A DNA stretch of 64,000 nt from a virus (lineage: Duplodnaviria; Caudoviricetes): the IMG/VR virus record IMGVR_UViG_3300042940_000551, positions 100 to 64,099 of that record; one strand, 5' to 3'. The number at the start of each line of letters is the position of its first letter. Within the stretch, counting starts at the first letter, position 1. Below are positions 3,061 to 29,010 of the stretch, one piece after another. The notes beneath the pieces are model-generated. The model worked only from the letters and a program-made list of their open reading frames with translations. It did no database searches and was not told the DNA's origin. The translations under genes and the position numbers were made by a program.

Positions 3061-3061
3061 A

Positions 3062-3757: not shown

Positions 3758-3760
3758 CTA

Positions 3761-3790: not shown

Positions 3791-3829
3791 ATATATTAGT
3801 GGGATGCTGTGGTTTATGTTAGAGGATAA

Positions 3830-5082: not shown

Positions 5083-5111
5083 GTACCGCTTTACGGTATA
5101 ATTAGTTTATT

Positions 5112-5441: not shown

Positions 5442-5459
5442 AAATAGTATACTAGGGGC

Positions 5460-6026: not shown

Positions 6027-6040
6027 AGTATAATAGATTT

Positions 6041-6531: not shown

Positions 6532-6570
6532 GCTATTGACAATCAGTAATACATTTAGTATTATTAGCAT

Positions 6571-7717: not shown

Positions 7718-7721
7718 TTAT

Positions 7722-7749
7722 AGTGGGGTAGGGGTTGACCTACCCCACA
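7722..7749 (+). terminator. hairpin overlapping the next promoter's -35
   Basis: gtggggtagg-ggttga-cctaccccac. Confidence 0.7.
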
Positions 7750-7770
7750 TTATTTAGTAGAATAGATACC

Positions 7771-8241: not shown

Positions 8242-8540
8242 TAGTAACAGATAGCACGTTTGATGAACAAATAAACAGCAACGATCTAATACTGATAGAT
8301 TTTTGGGCAGAGTGGTGTGGTCCCTGTAAAAAGGTATCTCCAATCTTAGACGAAATCTCTGAATCCACTGGCCTACTGGTTGGTAAGTTAAATATTGATG
8401 AGAATCCCATAAAAACAGTGGAATATTCTGTACATTCAATACCAACTATGGTATTATTTAAGGATGGAAGCCCAGTCCATACGGTGCTTGGCGCAAAGCC
8501 CAAACATCTTCTTTTAAAAGAATTGGCGGAATGGGTATGA
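8238..8540 (+). CDS. trxA: thioredoxin
   Basis: DFWAEWCGPCK, SIPT; GTG start overlapping the upstream stop. Confidence 0.95.
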   Translation: MIVTDSTFDEQINSNDLILIDFWAEWCGPCKKVSPILDEISESTGLLVGKLNIDENPIKTVEYSVHSIPTMVLFKDGSPVHTVLGAKPKHLLLKELAEWV

Positions 8541-8764
8541 CATTTGACGAATGGATTGCATACGGCATAGAAAAAGGTTGGTGCGGACCTCCAGTATGTT
8601 ACACACACGACGGACTACCAATGTCTGAACAAGAAGGCACAGAATTTGATGAAGGTCAAGATCCCTGTATGCATGTTGTTCGAATGTACGAAGACATTGA
8701 AACGAAAAAAGAAATAGAAGATAACCACTCTCCGTCACAATGGCGGAACTCGTACACAATATAG
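8531..8764 (+). CDS. conserved actinophage-type hypothetical protein
   Basis: FDEW..YG.EKGWCGPPVCYTHDG. Confidence 0.75.
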   Translation: MGMTFDEWIAYGIEKGWCGPPVCYTHDGLPMSEQEGTEFDEGQDPCMHVVRMYEDIETKKEIEDNHSPSQWRNSYTI

Positions 8765-8811
8765 GTTTCCACGCTCAGCAAGAGGTGGGAAGAAAAAGGA
8801 GAATAAATTAA

Positions 8812-9834
8812 ATGAAGTCATTTAAGAAAGTATCGCTAATCATCGCTGCAGCCCTGACTAGCACAATGCTTGTATCGCCAGCGGCTAATGCCAATGCTGG
8901 AACTGTCACACTAACAGTGGCGGGATCTGCAGCAACGGGTGGAACAGTAGTAACAACTCCTGTATCACTACCAGTGCCAGCAGATAACAGTGTAGATGCA
9001 GCAGATGCATTGAGAATCGCTGTAACAGGCGTAGACACTGGAACCGTAGTAACAGCAGTTGCAGTAAATGCAACTATTGTGCCTGCGCTTGCAACATCAG
9101 CAGCCCCAGTAACAGCATCAAGTGGAAGCTCAACACTTTCAGTTGCAACAGGAACTGGAACAGCAGCAGACTTTTATGTATATACTAAAAGTACAGCAGT
9201 AGGATCAGTATCGATTACTCGTGCTGGAACTACAACAGTTTACTATGTACAAGGTACCGCAGGTGCCTTGAACTCAATTACACTAACTGCTCCTGCATCA
9301 GCAGCAGCAGGGACATCACAGGTAATTAAAGTATCTGGATACGATGTATTCGGTAATCTAAAGGGTGGAGCCACAGTAAATACTTTGGTTTCAAATTCTG
9401 GAGCAGCAACCGCAACAGCGTTGACAACTGACACAGCAACAGCAACACTTGGTACAAAGGAGCAGACAATTACTATGCCTGCGTCTGGAGTAGTTACAGT
9501 TGTTGCATATGCAACAGTAGCATCAGCAGTAACAGGTCTATCAGCGCCAGTAGGTTCTGTAAGTGCCTCTATTGCAGTTCGTGACCTAGCAGGAGAACTT
9601 GCTGCAAAGGACACAACTATTGCAGGCCTTCAAGCACAACTTAAGGCAGCACAGGATGCTCTAGCGGTAGAAAAAGCTGGTCGTGCAACTGATTCAGCAA
9701 CAGCAACCGTAGCAGCATCAACAGCTAAGGCAGCGGCAGATTTAGCTAAGGCAACATATGTTGCAGAGTATAATGCCCTTGCTACAAAGTGGAACAAGAA
9801 GTTCCCAAAGGCTAAGGTAAAGCTAAAGAAGTAA
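8812..9834 (+). CDS. secreted Ala/Thr-rich Ig-like/S-layer-like protein
   Basis: Signal peptide, beta-rich A/T/V body, C-terminal coiled coil and basic tail; AGGAG RBS. Confidence 0.75.
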   Translation: MKSFKKVSLIIAAALTSTMLVSPAANANAGTVTLTVAGSAATGGTVVTTPVSLPVPADNSVDAADALRIAVTGVDTGTVVTAVAVNATIVPALATSAAPVTASSGSSTLSVATGTGTAADFYVYTKSTAVGSVSITRAGTTTVYYVQGTAGALNSITLTAPASAAAGTSQVIKVSGYDVFGNLKGGATVNTLVSNSGAATATALTTDTATATLGTKEQTITMPASGVVTVVAYATVASAVTGLSAPVGSVSASIAVRDLAGELAAKDTTIAGLQAQLKAAQDALAVEKAGRATDSATATVAASTAKAAADLAKATYVAEYNALATKWNKKFPKAKVKLKK

Positions 9835-9844
9835 ATCTTTAAAT

Positions 9845-9877
9845 TAAAGGGGCAGGGCCTAGGTCTTGCCCCTTTAG
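9845..9877 (+). terminator. intrinsic terminator
   Basis: taaaggggca(g)ggcctaggtcttgccccttta. Confidence 0.85.
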
Positions 9878-9900
9878 TATATAAATGATAGAATATGTTT

Positions 9901-10053
9901 ATGAAGGACGCAGAAGAATATGAGATGTATGCCTATTTTGAAGACAAGGTAAAAAGCTCTATTGTAAAGTCAATAAAAAACTTTGAGTTTCCAGAAGACT
10001 GGACACCAAAACAAGTAGTAGATTATATTACTTATAAAATAGATAGGAAATAA
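9901..10053 (+). CDS. hypothetical protein
   Basis: 50 aa; ATG 6 nt after TAGAAT. Confidence 0.65.
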   Translation: MKDAEEYEMYAYFEDKVKSSIVKSIKNFEFPEDWTPKQVVDYITYKIDRK

Positions 10054-10242
10054 ATGTTTAATAAATTAAGATTGTGGTTGCTAGAGCAACAGGTCAAAAC
10101 AATGATCGAGCAAGGCGAAGGTACCAGAAAGGTGAATAAAGTGAGCACAGCAAAGAAAACAGTAGCAAAGAAGAAGGCTCCAGTCAAGAAGACTGCCCCA
10201 GTTAAGAAGACTGCACCTAAGAAGACTACTAAAAAGAAGTAA
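10054..10242 (+). CDS. small basic protein with histone H1-like repeats
   Basis: KKAPVKKTAPVKKTAPKK. Confidence 0.7.
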   Translation: MFNKLRLWLLEQQVKTMIEQGEGTRKVNKVSTAKKTVAKKKAPVKKTAPVKKTAPKKTTKKK

Positions 10243-11084
10243 TGACCCTAGAGGACACATGCGAAATGGCGGGTTGCAGTAGCCCTGCGACCCGCCTTAC
10301 CTCAACAGAAAGTAAATATATTACTATTTGTGAGGATTGTTGGCACCAGATATACAAAAACTGATAAATGCTATAATAGGTATATGGATAGATTTCTAGA
10401 CCTATCCAAATACAACCTATAGGAGAACAAAATGGCAGAAGGAATTAACTTAACAGGCTTTAATGAAACAAAGCCAGGAGCAACAAACAGCTTGGATCTA
10501 AATCCAACAGGACAGGCACCAGCAGCAGCTTTTCCAGCAACAGATGTATCAAATCAGGCTTCAGCACAAGGACCTAAGTAGTATGTGTTATGAATGTGGA
10601 TGCGAAGCAGTAGGAAGTTCAACTGGACTTACAGCAATTCCAGGTGGAATTCTAAATGTTTCTACAGATGGAGAAGCGGGTCTTACTCTTAGTATGACAG
10701 CGACTCCAGAACAAAGAGAAAGATTTATTAATGAGTAATAATGGAACTGGAATGGATACTCCTCCAAACAATACACCATCAGGTGCAGTAACTTCACAAG
10801 AAGCAGCCAGGAAGAATCCATCGCAGGGAAGATTTAAATCGGGAATTGGAGCCAAGAGGCCCCCAACTATAGTTGATAAAAATAAACACGGTATTCGTAG
10901 AGAAACAATTATAGCTCCAAAGAAAACAAAACCTAAGAAGGTTTAAAGCATTCCCCACTGCCTCTAACAAGGGGCTGGTGGGGAACCTTATTTAATTATG
11001 TGCAAAGAATGCGGATCATGTTCAAAAGAACATCAAAGAACAATAGATGATGCGATAGATGAATCAGAAATATTAGGACTTTAA
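10242..11084 (+). other. run of small ORFs: 10242-10364, 10432-10581, 10583-10738, 10731-10946, 10998-11084
   Basis: Translated manually or in track; several Cys-rich (CxxCxC); AGGAG RBS before 10432. Confidence 0.6.
10951..10985 (+). terminator. hairpin terminator
   Basis: ttccccac...gtggggaa. Confidence 0.65.
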
Positions 11085-11122
11085 CTATTGACTTCCTATT
11101 TTTAATTTAGTATAATGAGATA

Positions 11123-12082
11123 ATGAGCGTAGACATACCAATTTTTAATTTTCATAACCATGTAATGGGCGGTACCGAATATCAAGGAAGACTTTTCCAT
11201 GAAAAAATTTTGCCAAATTCTCCCAATTTTCAAAACTACCTGTGCATGATTTTGCCAGGAAAAAATTTAGACAATAATAGCGTAGAAAAATTTGACGGAG
11301 AGATTATATTTTGGGTACATAATCTTCCTAGCCAGCTTTCTCCAGAGATTACAGAATTTTTTTGGAGCGGAAATCATATATCGGATAAAATTAAGTATGT
11401 AATTGTTCCTTCTGAGTATGCCAAAGATAAGTTTAACAAGGAGACTGGGTTTCCAAAGGAAAAGCTTTATGTGATTCCTAATGGTATTGAACCATTAAAG
11501 TATAATCCAGATAAGTTTAAAGATGTTAAAAAGGTAAGAATTACACACACCTCTGCTCCAAATAGAGGAATGATGATTTTGTTAAATTCCCTTCAATACA
11601 TTGAACAAGATTTTCAGCTTGACATATTTAATGATTTTTTACCAGAAATGTACCTAGATAACGAAATTATGCATGACGATAGGATTACTTTTTATGGGAA
11701 AACTCCTAGAAAAACCATGTACAAGTATTTGGAAAAATCTCATCTGCAGGCGTACCCTCCAATCTTTTTAGAAACATTTTGTATCTCAATTGCCGAGGCC
11801 ATGAGCGCTGGACTATTACCAGTTTATAGCAATGTTGGATCACTTCCTGAAGTTGTTAATGGACACGGCCTATACCTTGATGACATAGATAATAAGTTTA
11901 TTAAAGATGGTGTATTTCAGGGTGATGATTATGCAGAAGAGTATGGAAAAATTCTTTCTCAGGGCATAGATCAAATTCTTTCTGGAAAATGGGATCCAAG
12001 AGATCAAATTGAATATATTAATGGCGCTTACGGATGGGACACAGTGGCATCTAAATGGAAAGATTTCCACGATATCCTGTAG
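11123..12082 (+). CDS. GT-B (GT4-like) glycosyltransferase
   Basis: VIPNGI, HTSAPNRG, ETFCISIAEAMSAG (E-x7-E). Confidence 0.88.
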   Translation: MSVDIPIFNFHNHVMGGTEYQGRLFHEKILPNSPNFQNYLCMILPGKNLDNNSVEKFDGEIIFWVHNLPSQLSPEITEFFWSGNHISDKIKYVIVPSEYAKDKFNKETGFPKEKLYVIPNGIEPLKYNPDKFKDVKKVRITHTSAPNRGMMILLNSLQYIEQDFQLDIFNDFLPEMYLDNEIMHDDRITFYGKTPRKTMYKYLEKSHLQAYPPIFLETFCISIAEAMSAGLLPVYSNVGSLPEVVNGHGLYLDDIDNKFIKDGVFQGDDYAEEYGKILSQGIDQILSGKWDPRDQIEYINGAYGWDTVASKWKDFHDIL

Positions 12083-14709: not shown

Positions 14710-14937
14710 AGAGTCCTCTACCCCCAATATCCCCCCGTCCATAAAGATGTCTCTAATAGCCTCCTATGGCCTTTTAAAGCCATATCTAGAGATGATCCAC
14801 AGATATATAGACTACTAATTTGATAGCTAATACTACTAATATATATCTAATCTATTATATGAGTAATTGGACAGCCCTCCATTTTACTCCATCGTAATCC
14901 ATTTTGCTCCACATAGACCCATATGCATACCATATTT

Positions 14938-15219
14938 GAGGGATTTTGTCTATAGCCTCGTAAATAGCATATTCGGCCCATATTGTCAAGGCTTCAGGGG
15001 CATTTTATATGTCGTCGTAAACGACAAATTTTGCCCACAATTTTGACAGATTCTGATCCATATGTATCTCATTATCTGAGATTATATATACGTTTGATAA
15101 GATTGACATACGTTTATTAAATATTTTCAGGGATTTTTTATAGCTCGTCGTAAATGCGAAATATGGCCCATATGTTTATACACAAAAAATCCACAGGCTG
15201 TGGATAAACCTGTGGATAT
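14938..15219. repeat. three ~45-bp imperfect direct repeats followed by a DnaA-box cluster
   Basis: AGGG-N16-CGTAA-N~10-GCCCA at ~14939, ~14997, 15129; TTATACACA 15176, TGTGGATAA 15199, TGTGGATAT 15211. Confidence 0.75.
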
Positions 15220-15245
15220 CTTGGGCTATGGATATATTAGATTAG

Positions 15246-15512
15246 TTATACGTTACTATGTTTCCTATTGGTTACAAGGGATCTCTTCTTCTGCCGCTCC
15301 AGCCGATCATTTAATAAATGGGACATAGTAGGTTCGATCTTTGTTACCACCACCTCTGAACATAGGGAGTTGAATCGCTCCTGTTCAGCTAGCTTTTGAG
15401 CTTTCTCTGCCTTCTTAGCCTTCCTGAAGGTCCGTAGGGCATAGTTGATATCTCTACCATGGGAATCTGCCCACATCTTAGGCTTGCGCTGCTTATCCCC
15501 TATTGACTTCAT
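15246..15512 (-). CDS. basic hypothetical protein
   Basis: ORF track; last gene of the minus block. Confidence 0.6.
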   Translation of the reverse strand: MKSIGDKQRKPKMWADSHGRDINYALRTFRKAKKAEKAQKLAEQERFNSLCSEVVVTKIEPTMSHLLNDRLERQKKRSLVTNRKHSNV

Positions 15513-15796
15513 GGTAGTTTGATATTGTCGAAGTTGTTCTTTAGTTTAATCTTATCGATTACTTGGTCTAACTTATATGCTAGGGCAAGACCTTCTGATA
15601 CAGTTCCGCCATTGTGGTATTCCCGCTCATATCGTCTTGCTTGCTTCTCTACAACCCATGCCACAATTTCCATAATGCGGTCTAAGGTGTAGGTTGGCTG
15701 TTCTGCTAGGTATCTGCCTAAAGCGGCAGGATTGAAGAAATGGTCTTCTACTGAATTTGCTAGTAGTTCTCCTATTTTATGTTCTTTGCTTTGCAT
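15509..15796 (-). CDS. hypothetical protein
   Basis: AAAGGCGGAG RBS. Confidence 0.75.
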   Translation of the reverse strand: MQSKEHKIGELLANSVEDHFFNPAALGRYLAEQPTYTLDRIMEIVAWVVEKQARRYEREYHNGGTVSEGLALAYKLDQVIDKIKLKNNFDNIKLP

Positions 15797-15840
15797 ATCT
15801 CCGCCTTTGTTAGTAACCTTGAATTATATCAAAAAATGTT

Positions 15841-15872
15841 AGGGAGGTCAATACCCACATACTGACCTCCCC
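15841..15872 (-). terminator. hairpin terminator
   Basis: gggaggtca-atacccacatac-tgacctccc. Confidence 0.75.
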
Positions 15873-15877
15873 TAGCT

Positions 15878-16024
15878 TTACTTCTTTGCTTGCTTCTTCT
15901 CAGCTTCGAACTTGATCCCCTGAGCTTCCGCCTCAGAGATAGCTTTAACTGCAGCTGATGAAAAACGGCCACGGAGGCCGACGGTGATTCCTTGGGTCTT
16001 TAGATATTCTCTCTTTGTTGACAT
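15878..16024 (-). CDS. Lsr2-like DNA-binding-domain-only protein (48 aa, not in ORF track)
   Basis: MSTKREYLKTQGITVGLRGRFSSAAVKA resembles Lsr2 C-terminal REW...G..V..RGR; own promoter, RBS and terminator. Confidence 0.7.
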   Translation of the reverse strand: MSTKREYLKTQGITVGLRGRFSSAAVKAISEAEAQGIKFEAEKKQAKK

Positions 16025-16127
16025 GGTATTAGATCCTTTCGTGATCATATGTATTCTATCAGAAACCAGGGGTTTTGTAAATACCCCCGTAAGACCAGCT
16101 TTTGGCCCCTATATATTTAGTTGTAAT

Positions 16128-17898
16128 TTAGGATATAACTATTTTGTCAAACCCTGGGTGATGTTCCATATCTTCAGGCGTATCTTCAATTAAAGATTCG
16201 TCATCATATGTTATCGTTTGTTCATCTAAGAATACGTCAGTTGCTTCAATGACATCATCTGTTGTAACTTCAAACCACTCTGTACTTGGATAGGCATTTG
16301 CAGCCTCCGCTGCAGCATATTCATCCGCAGCAGAGACATGTGTATAATAGTTTTGATATTTGGTTCCGAATACTCTATATCTAGGCATTCATTAACTCCC
16401 GTTCCTCCCACTCAGCAAACGTTCGGACAATGAAATCCTTACCTAGATTATAACAAAATTGTACTGCTTCTGTCAAGGACTCTGTCTCAAATATTGGGAT
16501 CTGAACAGGCTCTATCTCAGATTTATCATACACCTCAAATGTATCCACACCTCCAGGGGAACAGGAGTAATTAACTTCCAGGATTTCTAAGCTTGGCTCG
16601 TATGACATGATTATTGCCCTTCTGTTTGTTCTACCCTATCTCTAATTAGTTTAGAGATGATGTTATGTGCTTCTATATTTTCAGTTTCGCTGCCACCCCA
16701 CAATAGTTCTTGGGCTCTGCTTAATTGATCATTGATATATGTATCACTCATCTTCATCTTCGTCCTCCTCTTCTTCTTCAAACATTGTGTCCACAATGTA
16801 GTCACGGCTTAACATCCAGTCAAGGACGTCATCGTTGTGCTGTTCCGCCCCGTACTCCAGAGAGAAGCCTTGGCCCGCCTCTACAGCCTCACAGAGGTGG
16901 TTCCACATCTCATCTATGGTGCAGTTCTGCTTGTAGGTCTCATCCTCAAAGATGTTGTTAATGGTAGACCAAGTCCATAGCCAAACTAAGGATAGGCCTA
17001 GGTCCGTTGTGTCTAGAATTTTTAAACATTCGTTTAGTTTATCTTTGTCTTCAGGCTTCATTCCGTGCTCCAATCGCAAATGATAGGTCGTATGTTAGTT
17101 TATACAGGGACACTAATGCGTCTAGATATCCTTCTGCATAGGTCCTCTCCATAGAATCCATTGCTTCACCTGACCGTTGTTCTTCTATCAGGGTCCGCTC
17201 TAATTCCTTTTCTCCAAGAAGCATGAGGTTCTTTAGTTCCCCATGCATGATGTCTAGGCCCGTTACCTCTGCGTCTACCATTCGTTGTAAATGGACGGGA
17301 AGTTCAGTATGTCTCATTCATATACCCTTTCGTTAGAAGCATTCATTATATCAGTAGCCACTGACAATAAATGTTCGGTTGCCATAATTTGTCCCTGGAT
17401 ATTAATTTTAGATTGAACATTGTAATCACCCTCTAAGTCCTGGTTAAGACTAATTAGATGTATCTTCATATACTCTATGAATCTAGATGACTTAGTCAAA
17501 GTAACCCTCCGCCCATAGGCCCTGTAGGAAATCATTTGCTTTTAACAAACCTTCAACTAAAGGGTCTTCGTCTACTTGCTCCACATCAGAATTTCTAATA
17601 TAGAAAAGCTTTGCGTCATGGACGGCATTACTCATTTGATCTAAATCTTCTTTGGTATAACCTAGCATTATGCTTCCTCATCCCATTCTATGTAGTATTG
17701 GTCCCCTGGTTTCAAATCATAAAACTGATTGAACCTACCTTTAAGATAATTGCTTTCTGCCATATCGGCAAAACAATAGTCTGCATATAGTTGACCTTCA
17801 TCTAAATTAGAATTAACCCAATCTTCTACCAGTTGTTCACCAATATAAGAATACTCTGCGTCAATCACCATTTGGTTTTCATTCTCTAAGAAACTCAT
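16128..17898 (-). other. early small-gene cassette: 16128-16388, 16381-16608, 16611-16751, 16744-17061, 17051-17317, 17314-17499, 17492-17668, 17668-17898
   Basis: Coupled acidic ORFs with GGAG/AAAGG RBS; no recognisable domains. Confidence 0.7.
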
Positions 17899-18668
17899 AC
17901 TTCCGCCTTTTCTGTAGTATCCAATAGTACCATGTGGGTCTGACATTCTTTCATAGCCTCTTCATCCTGCCAAGAACCATAATTACATTCTGAGCAGAAT
18001 TCACCGCAGTCATTCTCACAATACTCAACACAATCAAAAGACTGGCAAGCATAGCAACGATTTTCCCATTCTGCCAATTCTTTTACTTCGCCACGAACAA
18101 TCTCATATTCCCCACCCCAACCTGTCTCTTCCTCAAACTCTAATGTGAGAAGGGAATTAGGAACAAGATTACTTAGTTTAGTTAAGATAGTTACAGCAGG
18201 TGACCAAGCAGTCTCATATTTATATACAACCCAGTTGTCATCACCTTCTGATTTTTCTTCAAGCAATTCTGTATTAGGATATTTGTCATCATCTGATACA
18301 GCAACATCCCATTTGGTTCCCCAATTAGAATTATTCCATGAATACCAATCCTTCTGAGTTTTAGCAAACTCAACAGATTTGCGGAACCAATCAGGGTCAT
18401 TCATATCTAAACCTGAACGGTCAGGCTGGCAGGCATACTCTTCATCAGTAATACCTTCATCCTTATATGAGTGGATATTAAAGAAAGCAAAAACAGGATT
18501 ACTATAAGTAACCTCTTTAATTTTGGTGGGGAACCCATGGGCATTAATATCACCCATACCATATGTCTCTTGTGCTAATGTAAATGGCTTATTAAGTCTA
18601 TCCTTAATCATATCAACTTCATCCTTTGGACCTTGTATGGTCAAAGTGTTATATACCCAATTTGGCAT
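17895..18668 (-). CDS. DUF1281/YubB ferredoxin-like domain protein
   Basis: MPNW..N.L.I.G, W...NWGTKW, ETAWSP; Cys-rich C-terminus. Confidence 0.75.
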   Translation of the reverse strand: MPNWVYNTLTIQGPKDEVDMIKDRLNKPFTLAQETYGMGDINAHGFPTKIKEVTYSNPVFAFFNIHSYKDEGITDEEYACQPDRSGLDMNDPDWFRKSVEFAKTQKDWYSWNNSNWGTKWDVAVSDDDKYPNTELLEEKSEGDDNWVVYKYETAWSPAVTILTKLSNLVPNSLLTLEFEEETGWGGEYEIVRGEVKELAEWENRCYACQSFDCVEYCENDCGEFCSECNYGSWQDEEAMKECQTHMVLLDTTEKAEV

Positions 18669-18847
18669 TATATTCCTTTCGATAGGTCCTAATTATATAA
18701 CACGCCACTGACATATGTCTATCATATTTGGTGTGTCTTACACCACATTTGATCGTTTGATAAGATAAAGATATGCTAAAATATCCAGGAATTTATTGAT
18801 CTCTCCGTAAGAGAGAATTTATACCCTCAGCTGTTGCGGGCAAAGAA

Positions 18848-18879
18848 AAATCCCCCAAGACCCGAAACCTGGGGGATTT
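18848..18879 (-). terminator. intrinsic terminator
   Basis: aaatccccca...tgggggattt with U-tract on the minus strand. Confidence 0.85.
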
Positions 18880-18883
18880 AAGA

Positions 18884-18996
18884 ATAAAGGCTGCTAGCAG
18901 AAACGAAAGGAATTTAGTAAACGCTGCTTTACTTAGCGACTAGGGGAGTCCCTGGTAGCCGCACCTTTATTATATAAAGAGGCCCACTAGGACCTA
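18884..18996. ncRNA. candidate structured small RNA
   Basis: ORF-free; closing stem 18884-97/18952-70, two inner hairpins; flanked by a -10 (19002-07) and a terminator. Confidence 0.4.
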
Positions 18997-19022
18997 TTCA
19001 TATTATATCATAAACTAGTTAA

Positions 19023-19427
19023 CTAAACTGAGATGACAACATCGGCATACTTCTCAACAAAGTTGCTGAGGTCCATGGTAAAGATGGCGTCATTGCTCAT
19101 CCCATTTACCTTGTTATCCAAGTCATTGCGTGGAGCCTCTTCATGAAGACTAAATGTCTGTTGCTCAAAGTCGATAATGGCAACCTTGTGCTCATTGTCG
19201 CCAATCTCATTAACGTATAGACCCCAGCCTGTTTCCATATTCCACTGGTCCGCAACCATTTGACTGATTGTGATACGTGTAGCATATGAAGGGTCATTCC
19301 AACGTGGACGTGCTTTAAACACTGCCTCTGCTAGGTTTGCTAGCATGTTATGTCCAGCCCAGTGTCCGTATAGCACAATTGTGTTACCGTTAGGTTGGAC
19401 GAATCCAAAGTTTGCTCTATCTCCCAT
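19023..19427 (-). CDS. phage hypothetical protein
   Basis: MGDRAN...LYGHWAG; follows internal TTGACA-N18-TAGAAT promoter. Confidence 0.8.
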   Translation of the reverse strand: MGDRANFGFVQPNGNTIVLYGHWAGHNMLANLAEAVFKARPRWNDPSYATRITISQMVADQWNMETGWGLYVNEIGDNEHKVAIIDFEQQTFSLHEEAPRNDLDNKVNGMSNDAIFTMDLSNFVEKYADVVISV

Positions 19428-20615
19428 TATATTTCCGCCTTTTCTAGTTGAGGTACTTCTTCGGTTTTATTCAATTCTATCATTTCAAAGGAGACCTTGT
19501 CAAGGGCCTCTTTGTTTTTATTGTAGTGGTGGCCACAGAAATATAGCTCACCGTCTACTAGTTTAATTAGATACATAGCTTGAGCTGTACCACATTGATC
19601 ACAGCCGATCCATCTAGTTAGATCCTCAGATGTCATAGTCAACGGTTCCAAATTCAATGCGGTCAGCAATCTCATCATAAACTTGACCATCATCTGAAGT
19701 CTCAGCCCAAACACGAATGTTTGCAACAATTACTTCACGAGTAAATTTTACTCCGTCCTCAAAACCATCTTGGTAATCCATTTTATCTCCCTGTGTATCC
19801 TGTTGGCTCGTATTCCGAAACATAAGATTCGATAAGATTGTGTTTGTCACGAATCTTACTTACTTTCTCAATACTACCAGTTCCAATGTTGAATGTCAAT
19901 GCTGAAATTGCCTGCGGGTCAAGACCCATTACTTGAGCATCCCAATAGGCCCTCTCCATGGAGAGCCTATCAGGAGCAGTCAACTCAAAATACATTAGGC
20001 TTCCCTAACGTTGCATACTTCTTGGTCGACAACTTCGATGTTGCCGTTGTTTGAATCAGCAAAGAGCGCATCTGTAACTTCATCCTCGATATCATAATCA
20101 TATGGGTCGAGTAAGTTAACTTCAATAGTTCCAGTTACTTCAACAGATGCAGTAAACTGAACAGTCTTAGTCAACTCAATATCAAGAGCCTCGGCGATTG
20201 CACGTAAAGTATCTTGGTCTTGTGAGTCAGCATATGCCTCAAGAATGATATCTTTAACTGAATCAATCTTAGAGTTAAGTAAACCGTTTTGCTTTTGACG
20301 TTCACGTCCATTGTGTAGTTCCCATTCAAGGTTAACTACTTTATCTGTTGCATATTCTGCATCAGAGTATCCACGGATAACTTTATAGGTTACCAATAGA
20401 TTTGGGTTATATGTATCGGGCACCGTTACTGTGCTTGTCTCTTCCATTTTATTTCCTTCCGTTTCTGTAGGGTCTGATTCTACCACATTGGTCTGACACC
20501 ACACAACACTTGGGTCACTACAATTACAGGACGGGTCCCGAAAATGTATTCCCTTAGATACAATCTCAATAGATGCATCGCATGAGTGACATACATACCA
20601 ATATGATTTGAACAT
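19427..20615 (-). other. ORFs 19427-19642 (CxxC..CxxH Zn finger), 19626-19781, 19783-19995, 19995-20615
   Basis: ORF track with refined starts; coupled. Confidence 0.7.
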
Positions 20616-20718
20616 GACGCTATTGTACAGGACCCCACTGACATTTACAAGGATTTCCAGGGATTTTTTTTACGTGTCGTAACACAAAAAATCCCCCCTT
20701 AGCTCTGCGGGCCCTTTG

Positions 20719-20792
20719 CGATCCATAACGGACTTGAACCGTCGACCTCTACCGTGACAGGGTAGCGCTCTAACCAACTGAGCTAATGGACC
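20719..20792 (-). tRNA. tRNA-Asp(GTC)
   Basis: GGTCCAT/ATGGATC acceptor, CTACC-CTGTCAC-GGTAG anticodon arm, GGTTCAAGTCC T-loop; no encoded CCA. Confidence 0.93.
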
Positions 20793-20832
20793 AAATGGTG
20801 AGCAGTTTTAAATCTTGCTCAGGATTTTTTCT

Positions 20833-21837
20833 TTAGAAGGATTTAACCATCTTAAGAATTTTATTTTTTTCTGCGGTTAAGATTGGGTCAAAACCACTTG
20901 CACCCGCCATTAGGGTTTCGGAATTACCACGACCAGAACGGAAATAGTCAAGGCGTTCGGTAAGCGCATTAAACGCACCCCACTTTGTGCCTTTAATATT
21001 AGCGTTAGTTGGTGAGTTATGATAAAGGTCATCGATTAGAACAACCTTATTTTCCCAACGCTTAATTGTTGATTTGTTATCAACATCAGGCTTAGGATAA
21101 ATTGAGCGAATCAACTTTGAGAATTCAACATCGGTAATCTCTTGGTTAAAGAGTTCCTGCGCTTCCTTCTCAAACTCATCGAAATACCCAAGAGCAAGCC
21201 CAAGAGTTTCACGAGCAACTTGAATTCGTCCTTCAACAGATTGTGTGTGACGAATCTTGAATGATTGCTTTGCATTACGCATTGCAAGATTAAGAGTGTT
21301 TTGGCAAACTACACGAACAGGTGTAATCGCTGCCTGAACAGCAACTGAGCCATCGTGTGATGTCCAAACAATTAAATATAACTTTGTTTGGTCATTGGCA
21401 CCTTGTGGGTCAAGCACCATTGTGCGAGGAATATCAACAGTTCCAAACACAACTTTGCCCTTCTTAAGAGAGCCAGCAGATTCCCAACGGCAATTAGGGT
21501 CTGCGTCATGAATATTATCTGCAAACGCAAACAATTCTTCATTCTGCACAACTTTGTAACGCTTACCAACAGTAGCGAGAACATCGGTTTCGCCGTTGAA
21601 TGGATTGTCACGCAATACAAGGTGGGATTCTGATACGTCATTCCACTCTGATGAGATATAATCGGTAATTGGAGAGAGACGAACATTCCAATTAGATAAC
21701 TTTGCTTCTTCAAGCATTGTTTGTGTAGTCACATCTTCATCTTGATTGAAGATACGATTGGCAAGATTATGCCATGCGGGTGCACCACGAAGAGCAAATG
21801 CAACTTCGCTACCATTGGTTTCTAGATTATGAGCCAT
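20833..21837 (-). CDS. DUF932 family protein (phage/plasmid TIGR03299-like)
   Basis: MAHNLE, APAWH.L, LG.VG.RY.VVQNEE.F, SHDGS, TPVRVVCQNTL. Confidence 0.88.
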   Translation of the reverse strand: MAHNLETNGSEVAFALRGAPAWHNLANRIFNQDEDVTTQTMLEEAKLSNWNVRLSPITDYISSEWNDVSESHLVLRDNPFNGETDVLATVGKRYKVVQNEELFAFADNIHDADPNCRWESAGSLKKGKVVFGTVDIPRTMVLDPQGANDQTKLYLIVWTSHDGSVAVQAAITPVRVVCQNTLNLAMRNAKQSFKIRHTQSVEGRIQVARETLGLALGYFDEFEKEAQELFNQEITDVEFSKLIRSIYPKPDVDNKSTIKRWENKVVLIDDLYHNSPTNANIKGTKWGAFNALTERLDYFRSGRGNSETLMAGASGFDPILTAEKNKILKMVKSF

Positions 21838-22114
21838 GGATTTTTTCCTTTCGATTGGTTAGTTTGGCAATTATAGCAGACGGGACTGACAAGCACAAGA
21901 TAAACTTGGCATATGTCCTAATTGTCTAGTGTGATCAATCTCATATTTTTGGGGGATTGTGGATAACTGTCGTAAGGCTGTGGATAACCCCGCACATCTG
22001 CGGGCTGTGAGCTGCAGCAGATATGCCTACTCCGAAAAGATAGTCGGAGATCGTGAGCATTCTTTGGCGTAGGGAAAAACAAGAAAACTACGCTTTGACT
22101 GCAGCCCAACAATT

Positions 22115-22354
22115 TTAGATTAGTTTAGTTATTTCAGTCCGCTTTGGAATTACGTCCATTGGTATCATTAACGCTGTAGTCTTTTTCTTTTTAAGACTAT
22201 CATATACAAACGCCTTGATGTTTCCATTAAATCGGCGCATGTTAGAGAAGACTAGTTCAGTTAGATATTGCTTATCAACGCCTTGTTCTGAGTAAAGAGT
22301 TAAATCATTAGCCTTTACTTCATCATAGATTTCTATTCTATAACGATTTTTCAT
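22115..22354 (-). CDS. hypothetical protein
   Basis: AAAGGA RBS. Confidence 0.75.
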   Translation of the reverse strand: MKNRYRIEIYDEVKANDLTLYSEQGVDKQYLTELVFSNMRRFNGNIKAFVYDSLKKKKTTALMIPMDVIPKRTEITKLI

Positions 22355-22392
22355 TTTATTCCTTTGTTAGTAGGGAGTTAAATTATAGCATT

Positions 22393-22417
22393 GGGGGCTA
22401 GAGTTTGTCTAGCCCCC
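22393..22417 (-). terminator. hairpin terminator
   Basis: gggggctaga-gtttg-tctagccccc. Confidence 0.8.
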
Positions 22418-22426
22418 TGCCATTAG

Positions 22427-22843
22427 TTAGAGATACTTGGCAATCTGCTTCATTGTAGAAGCATTTACTGTTTCCTCATCTGTCATTTTGAGAATTGTTA
22501 GGGCATTGGTGATGTCCTCTTTCATCTCACGATAAGTGTGCTGATGGATTTGCTCGTAGTCCTTTTCAGGCTCTTTAGGAAACGCTGTATCTTTTGTGAT
22601 GATGTCAAAATCAACATTAAGAGTGTTGTTCCATTGACGATAGTTTGTTCTGATGTTTTCTGCCTTAGAGAAATTGTCAATCGCCCACTTGCCGATTTCC
22701 TTATGCCACTTCTCACGGGCTTTCTGATACTTTGTTTCGTTTGCTTCTTGTGAAGCATAGTCTTTCTCTAGTGTTGATAGCCGAGCCTCTAGTGCTTTAA
22801 TTACTTTAGCAGTTGCTACCTTTACTGTGATTTGTCTTGACAT
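22427..22843 (-). CDS. hypothetical coiled-coil protein
   Basis: AACGAAAGGAA RBS and own promoter. Confidence 0.8.
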   Translation of the reverse strand: MSRQITVKVATAKVIKALEARLSTLEKDYASQEANETKYQKAREKWHKEIGKWAIDNFSKAENIRTNYRQWNNTLNVDFDIITKDTAFPKEPEKDYEQIHQHTYREMKEDITNALTILKMTDEETVNASTMKQIAKYL

Positions 22844-22971
22844 TATTTTCCTTTCGTTTCGGTTGGTTGATTAGTATAACATAGGGGTCTGACATTTACC
22901 CCTAAAGGTGAGAGTTCTTACTTACGACATTGGGCGAGAACACTCTCTAAACTGCCCCTGTTTCGTTCTAT

Positions 22972-24280
22972 TTAGTTGTTAGGTGCGCTAGTCCAGCGTT
23001 CCTTACCATTTACATCAAGCAGGATACGATTTGTTCCGCTAGGGTGGTTATCAACCGCCTTGATAACTCCTGTGATACCGCTTGTTGTTGTTGTGTAGGT
23101 TTGACCTACTTCTAGTGTTGTGTTCATTTATTTCCTTTCGTTAGGTGGATTATTATACCAAAGGGGTCTGACATTTATCTACCCCAATCTTATTATTTGA
23201 GATTCCAGGGGTGTGAGTTGCCTCACACTCCTGGTTTTGATCCCGTTAGTAAGCTTCGGGAAGCCAAGCGTGTAGGTGGTGTCCATCTACGATAGCAGAG
23301 GCGGGGCAAGAATCTTGACCTCTCCAAAATACGCCTTCGGGCAGTTTAATTAATCTTTGATAGTCCTCATCATAGTATGCGTCAATAGCATCTATACAAG
23401 GTTCGACCATAGATACTGGAACGGGTGGATAGTGATTACTAGTCAAGTGGATTTGAATTTGTGTTTCCAAGTCCAAGTCTAGTAGGTCATTACTAGCCAA
23501 GTCATATGCCATATTGCTTCCCATTATTCGTTCTCCTCTAGGATAGTTTCGGATAGGTTTTCCATTTCGTCTATTGTAGCGCATAGGTCTGACATTTCTT
23601 TTTCGGTTAGCAATACCTTAGTTATGCTATCGGCTACTTTTGCAGATAGGGCAGAGGAATACATATATAGATACTTAGCAAAGATTTCATCGCTAAGTTC
23701 ATTTCTGCGGGTATGCAGTTCTCCCGCAAGCCCCATTATATCCTCATCAAAGATAGAGTTTTTGGTTGCGTCTAATAAATCTATTGCAGTTGATAGCATT
23801 ATTCTGCCACCTTTAGAATAGCCCAAGAGCCACCCGCATTTACTTCGTCAATAACTGGAGTAATCTTAGGAAGTAAAATAGACTTTAGCATTCCTTCTAG
23901 CATAAAGATTTGTTCTTTTTCAGGTAACGCAAGTAAGCGTTGTGCGGTTGGATTTGTTTCGTCAAGTTCGGTGACGAAGTTTAGAGAGTGGCTGATGATT
24001 TTCATTTGTTGCCTTTCGTTGGTTGAATAATGGTATTTTACACTATGGCACCGACATTTGCTAATCCATCCTCGGCGTGTCGCAGTTTTTGTGAAGTTTC
24101 TCACATTTCAGGGTTATCCACAATTAACCCGTAAGCCTGTGGATAACCCCGCAGTATTGCGGGCCCTTTATCGCTCCTGGTCCCAAACTTCAGGATCCAC
24201 TTCTTTTAAATATTTTATTGCATCTGAACGTTCATCTTCCGTGCCGAGGACCGTCGCCATTAATGCGCTAAAGTATTTCA
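22972..24280 (-). other. ORFs 22972-23127, 23246-23524, 23524-23799, 23799-24005 and a short ORF starting at 24280
   Basis: Each cassette has a CGAAAGG-type RBS and a motif promoter. Confidence 0.7.
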
Positions 24281-24293
24281 TTTTTATTTCTCC

Positions 24294-25013
24294 TTATTTT
24301 TTAGTTGCGCTAAATCTAATATCTGCTTTACCATAAACACATAAGCCGCATGACACACATGCAGAACCATTGCTAGAAATAAGCGGAATGCTTTTATTAT
24401 TTTCAGGACATTTAGCGCCAGGCTTGCCCGTTAATTCTTTCATGGTGCTTTCGGTGACGGCGAATGTCTTTCCTAGATAAGCAAGGCGGATACCTTGATT
24501 AAGTTTTAAGTCATGAGCAATATCTTTATTCTCATCGTCGGTAGAATAGTAAAGTGATAAGTTAGAAATATCCTTAAGGATTAAGGCTGCAGACTTAACT
24601 CGTGTATATACCCAGAATTGAACATCGGGATGATTAGAGATAACAGTCTTCCACGCATATGCGTAGGTATCGTTAAAGAAATCCCCGTCCCAGTGGATAC
24701 GGAATAACTTAGGAGCACTCTTCTTATCGCAATCATTGACGAAGTCAACAATCATTTCGTCTAGCAATAAGCACATTGTATCCATATCTGCATTGCGTAG
24801 TAGTTCCCAGTTATGAAGAAGATTAGCCTTTACGGCTTTATAGAGTTTTTCCAATTTGCCTGCATAGCAAACACTCTCGCAGATAGACGTAGCGCCAGGA
24901 CATGAATAAGCCTTTCCTGCGGGTAATCCAAACGTGTTAGCAATTGCTGCCTGCTTTCCATTTTTTGTGACAAGGTTAGCCACCTTTCTATCATTAGAAC
25001 GTTTAAGCTTCAT
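24294..25013 (-). CDS. Gp88-like Fe-S/radical-SAM-related protein
   Basis: FGLPAG..SCPGATSICESVCYA, FRIHWDGDF, FWVYTR, C-terminal CxxC; ATG 7 nt after TATAAT. Confidence 0.75.
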   Translation of the reverse strand: MKLKRSNDRKVANLVTKNGKQAAIANTFGLPAGKAYSCPGATSICESVCYAGKLEKLYKAVKANLLHNWELLRNADMDTMCLLLDEMIVDFVNDCDKKSAPKLFRIHWDGDFFNDTYAYAWKTVISNHPDVQFWVYTRVKSAALILKDISNLSLYYSTDDENKDIAHDLKLNQGIRLAYLGKTFAVTESTMKELTGKPGAKCPENNKSIPLISSNGSACVSCGLCVYGKADIRFSATKK

Positions 25014-25042
25014 GGGGGTAATTATAGAGGTTAGGTCTGACA

Positions 25043-25267
25043 TTATAAGTCACCCATTTCTGCATCGGCCATACGGGACTGCATACGAAATTCATCTCTT
25101 TCAAATAAATCAAAGAATTTCATTTCGGAGCGCTCTAAGTCGCAAGTCCAGCAAATTATGCCGTCTAGTAATTCAGTTTCATCTCGGCAATCCGCACAAT
25201 TAGCAATAATTACGGGCTCGGTTGTAGCATAGAATTCGTCATAGAATTCATCATTTTCATAGTTCAT
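25043..25267 (-). CDS. small acidic Zn-binding protein
   Basis: CADC...CWTC. Confidence 0.65.
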   Translation of the reverse strand: MNYENDEFYDEFYATTEPVIIANCADCRDETELLDGIICWTCDLERSEMKFFDLFERDEFRMQSRMADAEMGDL

Positions 25268-25402
25268 GAGTTGACCTTTCGTTCGATTTAAGAGAATAAT
25301 ACCATGACGCACTGACATTTTCTGCAACCCGCCTCAGAATCCAGGGTGATTTTAATCACACCCGTAACGACACGCCCGACTCCGCAGCTCTGTGGGCGGG
25401 CC

Positions 25403-25418
25403 TCGAACATATGTTCTA
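25403..25418. promoter_or_regulatory. LexA (SOS) box-like site
   Basis: TCGAAC-ATAT-GTTCTA versus actinobacterial TCGAAC-N4-GTTCGA. Confidence 0.55.
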
Positions 25419-25438
25419 AATTATAAATTAGATCGTAA

Positions 25439-25573
25439 TTAATTTTCTAATTTATTTTTATGTTTTATTTTGCGTGTGTATTTTTTTTTATTGCGAACAG
25501 GTTGCGCCGCATTACTGCGACGCAATTCCTGAATTCGTTTTACTTTATCTCGTAGTGAGTTTTGGAATAACAT
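25439..25573 (-). CDS. basic 44-aa peptide with ArfA-like C-terminal motif (not in ORF track)
   Basis: MLFQNSLRDKVKRIQELRRSNAAQPVRNKKKYTRKIKHKNKLEN. Confidence 0.55.
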   Translation of the reverse strand: MLFQNSLRDKVKRIQELRRSNAAQPVRNKKKYTRKIKHKNKLEN

Positions 25574-26263
25574 AACCACTCGCCTCGTGAAATCTTTTTA
25601 CATCAAATCGCTCATTATCTTTCGCAAACATTTCAGCGAAATCATTTACGACTTTAGAAAAAACAGCGGGGTGAATTTTATTACTCGCATACTTTAGAAT
25701 TTCTGCGGTTGCGACATAATCTTTTCGTGTCATCATTTTACTACGACCCTTCTACCTTCACGATAAAATAATTTCGTGTAGCATTTTCCGCTAGGTGTGT
25801 AAAGATTTACAGTTGAGTATTCATCAGCAAATCCCCAATCCACATACTTAGCGAATTCGGTGTGAGCCTCTAATTCATCTGAGTATTCTCTTACAAAGTG
25901 GATAGGCTCGCTATCATTAGCAACAGTTATTTTATACATTAGATACCCCACTTTTCTAGAGCGCAATCGCAACTCTCTACATCATAATTGTTTTCATCGC
26001 CCCAAAATAAGAAGCCAGCACCGCCACACTCATCACAAGATACAGCGATTATTTCTGAGATATTTCCCATTAGTTTTCCTTTCGTTTTGTTGTAATAAAA
26101 TTATACCAGCACCCACCGACATTTATTCGGCTTCGGGTGTAGTAAAAATCCCCTCATTTAGTAAGCCCACCTCAAGGGCAAATAACTCATCGGGGGTTGC
26201 TTCGGATAAATCTACCCAGCCAGCACCCTCGTTGTCCATACGAAAAATTTCTATGTATCCCAT
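25545..26263 (-). other. small ORFs 25545-25736, 25733-25939, 25939-26070, 26123-26263
   Basis: Coupled ORFs, manually translated. Confidence 0.65.
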
Positions 26264-26265
26264 TA

Positions 26266-26472
26266 TTATTCACCTACCTTTACTGCGACTGTTGCGAATT
26301 TATTTCGCAAGCCACCCGCATTTATTTCGATTAGGTAGGCTTCAGTATTTTCGCCATACCAAATTTCTGGGCGGTGTTCAGCAGAAATAATCTCACCTGA
26401 AAAGTGGCGAGTATTTGAGCGATAGGTTTTTCCTACAAGTAGGCTTTCGATTGTGTATAGTTTGGTAGCCAT
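26266..26472 (-). CDS. hypothetical protein, paralog A
   Basis: YTIESLLVG.TY.S..R.F.G.IISAE.R...ATVAVK. Confidence 0.75.
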   Translation of the reverse strand: MATKLYTIESLLVGKTYRSNTRHFSGEIISAEHRPEIWYGENTEAYLIEINAGGLRNKFATVAVKVGE

Positions 26473-26740
26473 TGGCAGACCTTCTTTCGTTTGTTGTTAT
26501 AGCACCATTATAGCCGATAGCACCGACATTTTTCTACTTACTAGCCAGTAATTCCAAATAATGAGACGCTCAAGCCGTGTGTTCTTCATCACATAAAAAT
26601 GTCCGATTTGTCTGTCAAATCGACACGCCGTAGAATTCAGGGTTTTTTATAACAATGTCGTAACGACACGCCCGACGCCGCAGCTCTGCGGGCTTGTCAA
26701 GCCGACACGCCGTTGTGTCGGTGTGAATTACCTCACAATT

Positions 26741-26956
26741 TCAGTAATCTGAAATTCTGACCGCAACTGTTGCCCATTCATCAGTGAATGAACCTGTTGG
26801 GCGATAGCGAATTGAAAACGCTTCATAACCTTCAGGCGGATAAACATTTTCACGCTTTTCCGCAAAGTTAATTATTCCGCCATTAAATCGGCGACGCATT
26901 GACGTTGGTGAATAGTATTGATCCACCAACAAATCTACAATAGAATAACCTCTCAT
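26741..26956 (-). CDS. hypothetical protein, paralog B
   Basis: YSIVDLLVD.YY.P..R.F.G.IINFAE.R...ATVAVR. Confidence 0.75.
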   Translation of the reverse strand: MRGYSIVDLLVDQYYSPTSMRRRFNGGIINFAEKRENVYPPEGYEAFSIRYRPTGSFTDEWATVAVRISDY

Positions 26957-27210
26957 TGGTTTTCCCCTTTCTTTTCAGTAATTTTAGCAGATAGCACTGA
27001 CAAAGCTTGAGCCTTGCTTGCTTCACGTTGCGCTAAAACGTGTTTTTTAAATTCATCTAAATTCATTTTAGTTTTTCTCCTTAGTAGGTAGAGCGAATAA
27101 ATATTTTAGCAGAGCCTTGCGCTCATAAGTAGTTAATTCTGGGTGATTAGAAACCACTCCACCATTTTGGTATTCCCAAACAATTTTATTAAAAGTTTTT
27201 TCGGATAACA

Positions 27211-28649
27211 TTACATCACCCAACTTTCTTGAGTGTATGCTAACCACTCACCAAGGGTCATTAAACCCTTGTATTCATTACATTTACCGCAAAACATTTC
27301 GTTTGCGTAGTCTGAGCAAAAACCGCAGACAATTAAATTAGCCTCATCGGCTTGGACATTAGAGAGAGTAATCTCTCGGATTAGTGTAGTCATTTAAGAC
27401 CACCTTTCTTTTAACGATTAAAACCTTATTTAATCTTGATACTAGTATCCTACCATAGACCACTGACATTTTGACCCGTTTTTCGGGCGTGTCGGAAAAC
27501 TATTTTTGTGATTTACATCATGTGGATAACTTACGCTCAATTTTCAGGGGTTTTCCACACCTGTGTATAAAGCTGTGGATAACGCCCCCAAGTACTTGCG
27601 GGCCGATCTGACTTTGTCAAATCGACACGCCGATAATTAGCGCAAATCTTTTGTGAGTTCCCTCACATCTTCTTTTAACATTGGCCACGCCATACGCCAC
27701 AAGGATACGACGGAAACTAGTAGGGCTAATTGGACTAGTGTAGTTAGTAATCTATTCATTACTTATTCTTCTTTCTCTTATAAATCTTATAAGCAATTAG
27801 TAGGGCGGTAGTAATAGCGATAGTGTGCCAAGGTAAGTAGATAGCCCCAAAGAAACTATCAAACTCTAATCCGTATTCATTAGATACGATTAACTCAAAT
27901 CCGCTAGGTATCATTGTATTAGTCCTCCCAATCTAGTGCTAGTTCTTCTTCATCTAGCATATCGCTATCTGCTAAGTTTTCGTAGTAGGCTTTTTCCCAC
28001 TCTAAGTTTTCTTCTATTCCAATATAGGCATCTGCTACATCTGCTTGGATAGTATCCCATTTAGACATCATTAGTTTTGTTCTACCTTTCGCATATGTGC
28101 TACAACATTTTTAGAAATCTTTTGTAGTTCTGTTAGTGTCTTATTCATTTCATCTGCGCTAGTAGCGGTGAAGAAACCGAGGAATTGTGCCCCGTCCCAT
28201 AGTGAGTATGTTATTGTCATTTTATTTTCTATCCTTTTCGTTAGTTGTTATAGTTGATATTGTAGCCTATATGGCTGACATTACCTAGCATAGGGCTAGG
28301 TGTGTCGGTGTGAGTTATCTCACACCTAAGAGCCATTGGCTCTCATTAGGGCTTAGGTATTTATGAGATACGCAACCCTCTTTAGAGGCTAGTAACTCTA
28401 GGTAAGCCTTACGGCTCATATAGTTACCTACGCTATTACGAAACACAAGCGGATCACCTGTGTTACTACTAGCCATAGGGTGGCTAGCGTCTACAATAAT
28501 GTTATTCATTACTTAACTCCTTTCTTAGAGCAATTCTCCATGTGAACGAAGCAAGCGTATCCACACTCATCACAGATACTATCTGCTAGACGGGCACGGA
28601 TTTGTTCATAACTCTCAAGAGAGTTTCTATTTTCATATAGTGAGTTCAT
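27211..28649 (-). other. very small ORFs including 27211-27393, 28315-28509, 28509-28649
   Basis: GAAAGG RBS and motif promoters. Confidence 0.6.
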
Positions 28650-29010
28650 TTGGAACTCCTTTCTTTTTAGATAAACTTAGGTAATTTATTTGCTAGGCTC
28701 ACCTTTCGGATTATTTGCTAGGCTCATTTACCTTTATTTAATTTTCTTTATACTATAATCCTAGCAGGGGGGACTGACAAATATCAAGTCGCAAATCGGA
28801 CATGTCGGACAATTTGAAAAAAAAGTGTGTGAGTTAAGCCACATTTAGCCTATCTATGGGCGCACTATATAGACAAAACGGACATTTTTAAAGTGTGTAT
28901 CATACAAATTAAAATCCTATTAACATTTTGGTATATCTAAAATAGTAGTCGACTAAAAATATTTGATCATATCTATTGACCCAACAAAATCTGCTATGTT
29001 ATACTTAAGA

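Follow-up and report, generated by a model that had tools for sequence, protein, structure and literature searches.

Promoters resembling the PafBC-dependent class in the small-gene block of an uncultured lake phage of actinobacteria

Introduction

PafBC is present in almost every actinobacterial species, and the in vivo consensus of the promoters under its control is tGTCgg(N10)tA(N3)T, of which the 5' part at −23 to −28 forms the '−26 element' while a −35 element is absent (Müller et al. 2021, PMC8635444). Such promoters, referred to as PafBC-dependent, RecA-NDp or recA P1-type, are known from Mycobacterium, Streptomyces and other Actinobacteria (PMC8635444, PMC6789036, PMC11804915). The winged helix of PafB reads the GTC triplet via R46 and R50, and the helix-turn-helix (HTH) domain of PafC docks on SigA domain 4, a mode of promoter reading designated 'sigma adaptation' (PMC8635444). 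PafBC is activated by single-stranded DNA (ssDNA), gaps included, and joins only the RNA polymerase (RNAP)-SigA complex that is already on such a promoter (Schilling et al. 2025, PMC11804915). Here we describe 18 sites of the form TGTC(A/G)G-N10-TAnnnT within a 64,000-nucleotide stretch of viral DNA (positions 100 to 64,099 of IMG/VR record IMGVR_UViG_3300042940_000551; hereafter the window), which is assigned by its genes to an uncultured lake phage of actinobacteria. Judged from their sequence context the 18 sites behave as promoters, and they likely represent a phage-borne set of the PafBC-dependent (RecA-NDp) class that is read by PafBC of the host.

Results

A discrete class of 18 sites in the window

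The window was searched with the pattern TGTCRG-N10-TAnnnT, and 100 shuffled sequences were used as the control. A total of 19 matches were detected against 1.08 ± 0.98 (maximum 4) in the shuffles, and 18 of them lie within 17345–28779, all on the minus strand. An earlier reading of the sequence alone (the sequence-only reading) had listed 17 copies, all on the minus strand; the strand was correct and the count is now 18. The genome-wide pattern search that it had proposed left all matches but one inside 17345–28779, against about one match expected, and its view that no copy exists outside 17.3–28.8 kb holds for the window and for the remainder of the 64,099-nt record, in which zero further copies were found. 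The exceptional match, on the plus strand at 4039–4060, falls on the opening codons of the WhiB gene, and relatives have it at the start of their WhiB genes too. As this site is conserved as coding sequence and stays below 8 bits, the reporting threshold of a position matrix spanning −31 to −7, it was ruled out as a promoter. By the same matrix the 18 sites score 22–31 bits, but the runner-up anywhere in the window, on either strand, reaches only 9.2 bits, within the range of shuffled sequences, indicating that the 18 sites form a discrete class.

The consensus of the 18 sites is aaaTGTC(A/G)G(T/A)SS...TGnTAtAAT. With +1 set seven bases past the −10, the GTC-containing hexamer is located at −28 to −23 in all 18 sites. 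The −10 hexamer is TATAAT in seven sites, TACAAT in three, TAAAAT and TAGGAT in two each, and TATTAT, TATACT, TACTAT and TAGAAT in one each; position −14 is G in 14 copies, and the full TG at −15/−14 is present in 11. When the class was tested as canonical SigA −35/−10 promoters, a TTGACA-like hexamer 16–18 nt upstream was absent as a consensus, and a −35-like hexamer with four of six matches at spacer 17–18 was found in 6 of the 18 sites. The geometry first read from the sequence, that is, an exact 10-nt spacer, the hexamer at about −28 to −23, a good −10 and mostly no recognisable −35, was borne out on each point. Identity between the flanks of the 18 copies was 25.7%, equal to the 25.7% for random segment pairs, indicating that the copies are not recent duplications and that the motif is kept by selection. 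The possibility that TGTCAG is a −35 in inverted or shifted form (CTGACA or tTGTCA) was rejected because no matching −10 consensus lies at the needed distance, and a sigma54-like (−24/−12) reading was rejected in view of the TATAAT-type −10 and TGn.

Conservation in related phages

The strict pattern with spacer 10 was detected in at least 118 IMG/VR stretches, against 8 with spacer 11 as the control, and the 118 loci listed (1.09 Mb) were taken as the related set. Within these loci the spacer of 10 nt was found 819 times, but spacers of 7, 8, 9, 11, 12 and 13 nt only 6, 25, 13, 13, 41 and 12 times, respectively; copies within one locus are nearly all on a single strand. Five near-complete relatives of 110–116 kb carry 13–17 copies each, on one strand and within one block of 11–12 kb. 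In an anchor test, sites were selected by TGnTAnnnT plus the shared leader and the hexamer was left unconditioned. TGTC[AG]G was found exactly at −28 to −23 in 280 of 317 such sites, and rare variants retain TGTC; the remainder carry mostly ordinary −35 hexamers. Among 664 unique sites from the relatives, +1 is A in 60%, −14 is G in 82%, and G is depleted around the start. Upstream of −31 these 664 sites show no −35 consensus, only a faint T at −36/−35 (0.13–0.14 bit). CGACAC at about −58 (~10% of the sites) and AGCGTCTCA at about −70 (~6%) were rejected as general promoter parts.

A distant relative of 54% guanine-plus-cytosine (GC) content and an estimated 170 kb (G106) carries four promoters of the PafBC type, which contain TGGTATAAT and form divergent pairs between 24145 and 30559, indicating that the wiring extends beyond the 39%-GC lineage. 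Its kinship is evident from 86% amino acid (aa) identity to window 9142–9480 and 57% identity for SLT. The former match belongs to a 340-aa protein encoded at window 8812–9834 on the plus strand, which has no Pfam or PHROG match, is 74–87% identical over ~110 aa to the G106 protein, and is far more conserved in this comparison than its neighbouring genes. In addition, a metagenome-assembled genome (MAG) labelled Bacteroidia (G007) includes six or more contigs from this phage family with several PafBC-type promoters each; these contigs most likely represent binning contamination and not a host signal.

Match to the PafBC-dependent promoters of bacteria

The sequence-only reading called the motif a non-canonical promoter. 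A new promoter type could not be maintained, because the sites match the known PafBC (RecA-NDp) class in the hexamer, in R at −24 and the invariant GTC, in position, in the 10-nt distance to a SigA TAnnnT, and in having no −35. In about one-third of the phage sites TGG follows the hexamer, as in Streptomyces recA. Differences from the bacterial class were also observed. The phage has an A-rich −31 to −29 and an ACC subtype at −22 to −20, and its sites form an array of 18 promoters in a lytic-looking phage, located before small unannotated genes rather than repair genes. Our searches of the literature on PafBC with phages and on RecA-NDp brought up no report of such promoters in a phage.

Metagenomes were scanned for the motif followed, 50–110 nt on, by the RecA peptide IE(K/R)x(F/Y/H)GKG, and at least 120 stretches were obtained; all 120 matches listed are genuine recA starts. 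They include a Streptomyces-type group (TGTCAGTGGCAGGCGTTAGCGT), a Mycobacterium-type group (TGTCGGTGG..TAGTGT), and groups from lakes, namely mid-GC contigs and low-GC contigs (44–47% GC) with TGTCAGTTAGGGCAGTTATCTT or TGTCAGTGCAGTTACCTACGGT. One low-GC contig (L168) shows the order ftsK, pgsA, cinA, HTH, DUF3046, recA and recX, which is the actinobacterial order. The presence of TGTCAG at recA in these contigs indicates that low-GC lake actinobacteria, a plausible host group, use the same box. In a further recA group, in which RecA starts with MSDN.DREKALEMAIGQIEKQHGKGTIM, the sequence TGTCAGT.T.ATTT.ATATATT is located at a fixed 36–40 nt before ATG (contigs L155, L174, L183, L190, L212, L236 and others, GC 0.37–0.47, up to 1.1 Mb), suggesting that this promoter type is wider than Actinobacteria.

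The phage promoters differ from those of host recA in strength of the −10. Matches to TATAAT average 5.25 of 6 for the phage versus 3.7 of 6 for host recA, and TG at −15/−14 is present in 66% versus 9%. The near-consensus and mostly TGn-type −10 of the phage, compared with the weak −10 of host recA, indicates that the phage promoters are 'up' versions of the class; as such they may retain RNAP more firmly until PafBC joins, or may have a PafBC-independent basal activity. This difference also explains a misleading result. In 596 Gb of prokaryote genomes, only four occurrences of the strict form AAATGTCAGWSS-N4-TGNTATAAT were found, as if the motif were phage-specific, but the strict form misses the host versions because their −10s are weak and lack TGn.

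Two MAGs with tandem WYL/PafC-HTH genes (G006 and G008), neither of which is the host, carry TTTTTGTCAGGGG..TGCTAT(A/G)GT ~50 nt before recA. In G006 there are 50 motif matches versus 15 for a control pattern, many of them of the form TGTCRGGKGGYGGTGGTAnnAT. Judged by these features, a PafBC-like regulon looks to be present outside the usual Actinobacteria. G006, one of the four strict matches, did not serve as a route to actinobacterial genomes, since 98 of 99 genomes of its phylum show no enrichment.

Individual promoters and their genes

After 15 of the 18 promoters, a leader of 17–47 nt leads to a Shine-Dalgarno (SD) sequence, often aACGAAAGG, and a start codon; two promoters have ATG at +1 or +2 (20615 and 25013), and are thus leaderless, and one has a leader of 102 nt. 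The latter is the first promoter of the block (28758–28779, minus strand as for all that follow; TGTCAG-N10-TAGGAT), with ATG at 28649. Then follow 28259–28280 (TGTCAG-N10-TACAAT; gene start 28220), 27447–27468 (TGTCAGTGG..TGgTAGGAT; 27393), 26981–27002 (TGTCAGTGC..TGcTAAAAT; 26956), 26507–26528 (TGTCGGTGC..TATAAT; 26472), 26100–26121 (TGTCGGTGG..TGgTATAAT; 26070) and 25296–25317 (TGTCAGTGC..TGgTATTAT; 25267). The promoter at 25021–25042 (TGTCAGACC..TATAAT) precedes the leaderless GP88-like gene, of which ATG 25013 is at +2; the Pfam GP88 match starts at the Met of this ATG. Next are 24035–24056 (TGTCGGTGC..TAAAAT; gene start 24005), 23573–23594 (TGTCAGACC..TACAAT), which lies within the 3' end of the open reading frame (ORF) 23799–23524 and before the next gene at 23524, 23152–23173 (TGTCAGACC..TGgTATAAT; 23127) and 22873–22894 (TGTCAGACC..TGtTATACT; 22843). 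The promoter at 21870–21891 (TGTCAGTCC..TGcTATAAT) is followed by the DUF932 gene at 21837–20833, the homologue of StarPlatinum gp2.

Downstream from these, the promoter at 20622–20643 (TGTCAGTGG..TACAAT) has ATG 20615 at +1 and would give a leaderless 206-aa ORF, inside which a further promoter, 20477–20498 (TGTCAGACC..TGgTAGAAT), lies ahead of a start codon in the same frame, at 20447 (150 aa), which has an SD of its own. From the 206-aa ORF (20615–19995), with its internal promoter and internal start, two isoforms are possible. A tRNA-Asp gene (20718–20792, minus strand) lies directly upstream of the promoter 20622–20643, apart from the cluster of four tRNAs at 30916–31218. The last three promoters are 18692–18713 (TGTCAGTGG..TATAAT), in front of a 257-aa gene (18668–17895), 17924–17945 (TGTCAGACC..TGgTACTAT), within the 3' end of that gene and before the next gene start at 17898, and 17345–17366 (TGTCAGTGG..TGaTATAAT), within the 3' end of the upstream ORF and before the next gene start at 17317. 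The placement of the copies at 17345, 17924 and 23573 inside the 3' ends of upstream ORFs had been noticed in the sequence-only reading and is correct; the copy at 20477 likewise lies within an ORF.

Canonical promoters in the same phage

A second class of promoters, with a TTGACA-like −35, a spacer of 17–18 nt and a TATAAT-like −10 mostly preceded by TGn, was detected in the same phage, each lying upstream of an SD-led start codon or of the tRNA cluster. Those on the minus strand are located at 33693–33664, 22411–22382, 19899–19871, 19503–19474, 16476–16447, 16081–16053 and 15851–15823, and those on the plus strand at 28976–29005 and 30879–30907. This implies that host RNAP recognises ordinary −35 elements in this phage, and the PafBC-type class is a separate and deliberately different set, interspersed with canonical promoters in the same block.

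The phage and its small-gene block

Among the window proteins are a WhiB (Pfam PF02467, 44 bits), a GP88-family protein and a DUF932 protein, and the portal is 59% identical to portals of Streptomyces phages (Stanwilliamsviridae). WhiB, portal and GP88 together indicate an actinophage. The promoters are located in a block of ~45 small genes (15246–28779, minus strand), most of which are without annotation. This block is syntenic with the left terminal repeat of Streptomyces phage StarPlatinum (NC_048721; Stanwilliamsviridae, cluster BE-type), in which genes 1–26 are repeated at the right end as a 12,199-bp direct terminal repeat. The DUF932/DUF945 protein corresponds to gp2 (46%) and the GP88-like protein to gp7 (53%), and SLT, glycosyltransferase and RNR (65%) genes follow the block in StarPlatinum order. 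The window block would accordingly be the homologue of the StarPlatinum terminal repeat, its physical repetition being suggested by synteny only. By the same synteny, the non-coding regions 14710–15245 and ~28800–29250 would bound a collapsed terminal repeat of ~14 kb, and 14710–15245 would then be the physical end of the genome.

In T5 and SPO1, terminal repeats of ~10–13 kb enter the cell first and carry many small genes, nearly each with a strong promoter. By analogy with these phages, the window block is probably an early-gene region. Elsewhere in the window, at 7735–8241 on the plus strand, a pyrimidine-dimer DNA glycosylase is encoded (PF03013, 73 bits), a UV-repair enzyme of some interest in a phage with promoters of a type tied to a DNA-damage sensor.

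Discussion

From the sequence features above, the phage probably borrows the PafBC switch of its host. Host SigA holoenzyme would bind to the strong and mostly extended −10, and the host heterodimer PafBC, loaded with ssDNA, would insert between SigA domain 4 and DNA. The winged helix of PafB would then read GTC of TGTC(A/G)G at −28 to −23 in replacement of the −35 contact, that is, by sigma adaptation. The small-gene block would thereby be coupled to the ssDNA alarm of the host, for which ssDNA might be supplied by entry, processing or replication of the phage DNA or by a damaged host. We infer that the host has PafBC and that PafBC drives these promoters, and likewise the source of ssDNA and the timing.

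A dedicated factor acting through sigma, as the sequence-only reading supposed, is still the best explanation for a −26 element without −35, and one candidate that it named for this factor was the phage WhiB. For Sigma70_r2, zero matches at E ≤ 0.1 were found in five genomes (this phage and four near-complete relatives), but the control was positive in 10 of 14 bacteria. No Pfam match to WYL or HTH_PafC was found in the phage and the near-complete relatives, and none to MotA/AsiA (PF09114, PF09010) at E ≤ 0.1 in the five genomes, although in this last case no control genome was positive and the sensitivity is unproven. As no phage sigma region 2, WYL, PafC-HTH, MotA or AsiA is detectable, the reader is most likely host PafBC and not the phage WhiB, which is unneeded and which nothing links to the −26 element.

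It is nevertheless conceivable, though quite unlikely, that WhiB or an unannotated small early protein of the phage recognises the −26 element and either brings in SigA or remodels it, the likeness to PafBC being mimicry or coincidence. WhiB is kept in all five genomes examined, WhiB-like proteins bind SigA domain 4, the many unannotated genes of the block leave room for such a factor, and the canonical −35/−10 promoters of the phage could express it first. On the other hand, we know of no WhiB-like protein that reads a −26 element, identity with the host class by chance in the hexamer, R at −24, frequent TGG at −22 to −20 and 10-nt spacing is very unlikely, and the same box is found before recA in low-GC actinobacterial contigs. 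WhiB was of no use as a probe for host proteins, because all 120 matches listed are phage orthologues of 68–96% identity. An unlikely alternative is that host SigA alone uses the sites as PafBC-independent extended −10 promoters and that TGTCAG is an operator through which a phage or host protein would turn the block off at a later stage of infection. Extended −10 promoters need no −35, and the high frequency of G at −14 together with the near-consensus −10 hexamers would suit this reading, as does the homologous StarPlatinum block, which uses ordinary host promoters. An operator has, however, no need for one exact distance to the −10 in ~800 sites; the element lacks symmetry, occurs singly and is the same as the site of an activator, and no repressor candidate was found.

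The array could also act mainly as a sink, drawing PafBC-RNAP away from host repair and defence genes onto replicating phage DNA, with gene expression secondary. Each genome copy offers 18 near-consensus sites, and according to a report as cited in PMC12848934 (Rafique 2025), pafBC influences mycobacteriophage resistance. This role is highly improbable as the main one, because PafBC binds only within the RNAP-promoter complex (PMC11804915) and because each site lies ahead of a gene that either has a leader for ribosome binding or is leaderless, which argues for expression as the selected function.

Several points weigh against control by host PafBC. The main uncertainty of the mechanism is that such strong phage promoters might fire without PafBC. 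The TGTCAGACC form, present in a quarter of the phage sites, was not seen in the recA set. The mechanism would also need a source of ssDNA at the very start of infection. Finally, Streptomyces recA has the site but StarPlatinum has none, indicating that the wiring is a lineage choice and not a necessity.

We lean slightly toward the broader view that, in a very abundant family of ~110-kb lytic lake actinophages, the early block of the terminal repeat was rewired from −35/−10 to up-mutated PafBC promoters, so that the ssDNA sensor of the host serves as a switch for phage infection or replication. Of note is the phage context; the promoter class itself is known from hosts. PafBC sigma adaptation has so far been known only as a bacterial DNA-damage response, and in the literature searched we found no virulent phage that uses a bacterial DNA-damage activator. 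If driven by PafBC, ~45 genes of a dominant freshwater phage group would be timed by the ssDNA alarm of the host, which would give a virus a new means of detecting that it has entered or is replicating, or that its host is under stress. Several hundred natural 'up' variants of PafBC promoters would then be available for studies of sigma adaptation, and the motif could mark the hosts (Actinobacteria with PafBC) of uncultured phages.

Three known phage arrangements can be compared with this block. In T5 and SPO1, the promoters of the terminal repeats differ in that they are read by unmodified host holoenzyme via −35/−10. StarPlatinum shares ~25 small same-strand genes in synteny, nearly each with its own promoter, but these promoters are of the form tGTTGc-N17/18-TAGACT, that is, ordinary Streptomyces −35/−10, with an upstream GCCGCCCCGG..AAAAGATC element, and its whole genome contains zero TGTCRG-N10-TAnnnT sites. 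In the StarPlatinum repeat (1–11300), a terminator hairpin and then the conserved GCCGCCCCGGyyAAAAGATC precede tGTTGc-N17/18-TAGACT before nearly every gene.

In T4 middle promoters, the MotA box (a/t)(a/t)(a/t)TGCTTtA is centred at −30 and 12 ± 1 nt from the −10, and AsiA remodels sigma70 ('sigma appropriation'). The likeness to these promoters that was proposed from the sequence alone stands in part: the authors of the PafBC structure draw the same comparison (PMC8635444), but here the box is TGTCAG instead of TGCTT and the spacing is fixed at 10 instead of 12 ± 1. In both systems the −35 gives way to an element near −30, whose reader is an adaptor in contact with sigma domain 4, and middle and early promoters are intermingled in T4, much as the two classes are here. 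T4 supplies its own factors, which remodel sigma, whereas the adaptor of the lake phage is presumably a host protein; rewired use of PafBC would thus be the host-encoded counterpart of MotA/AsiA.

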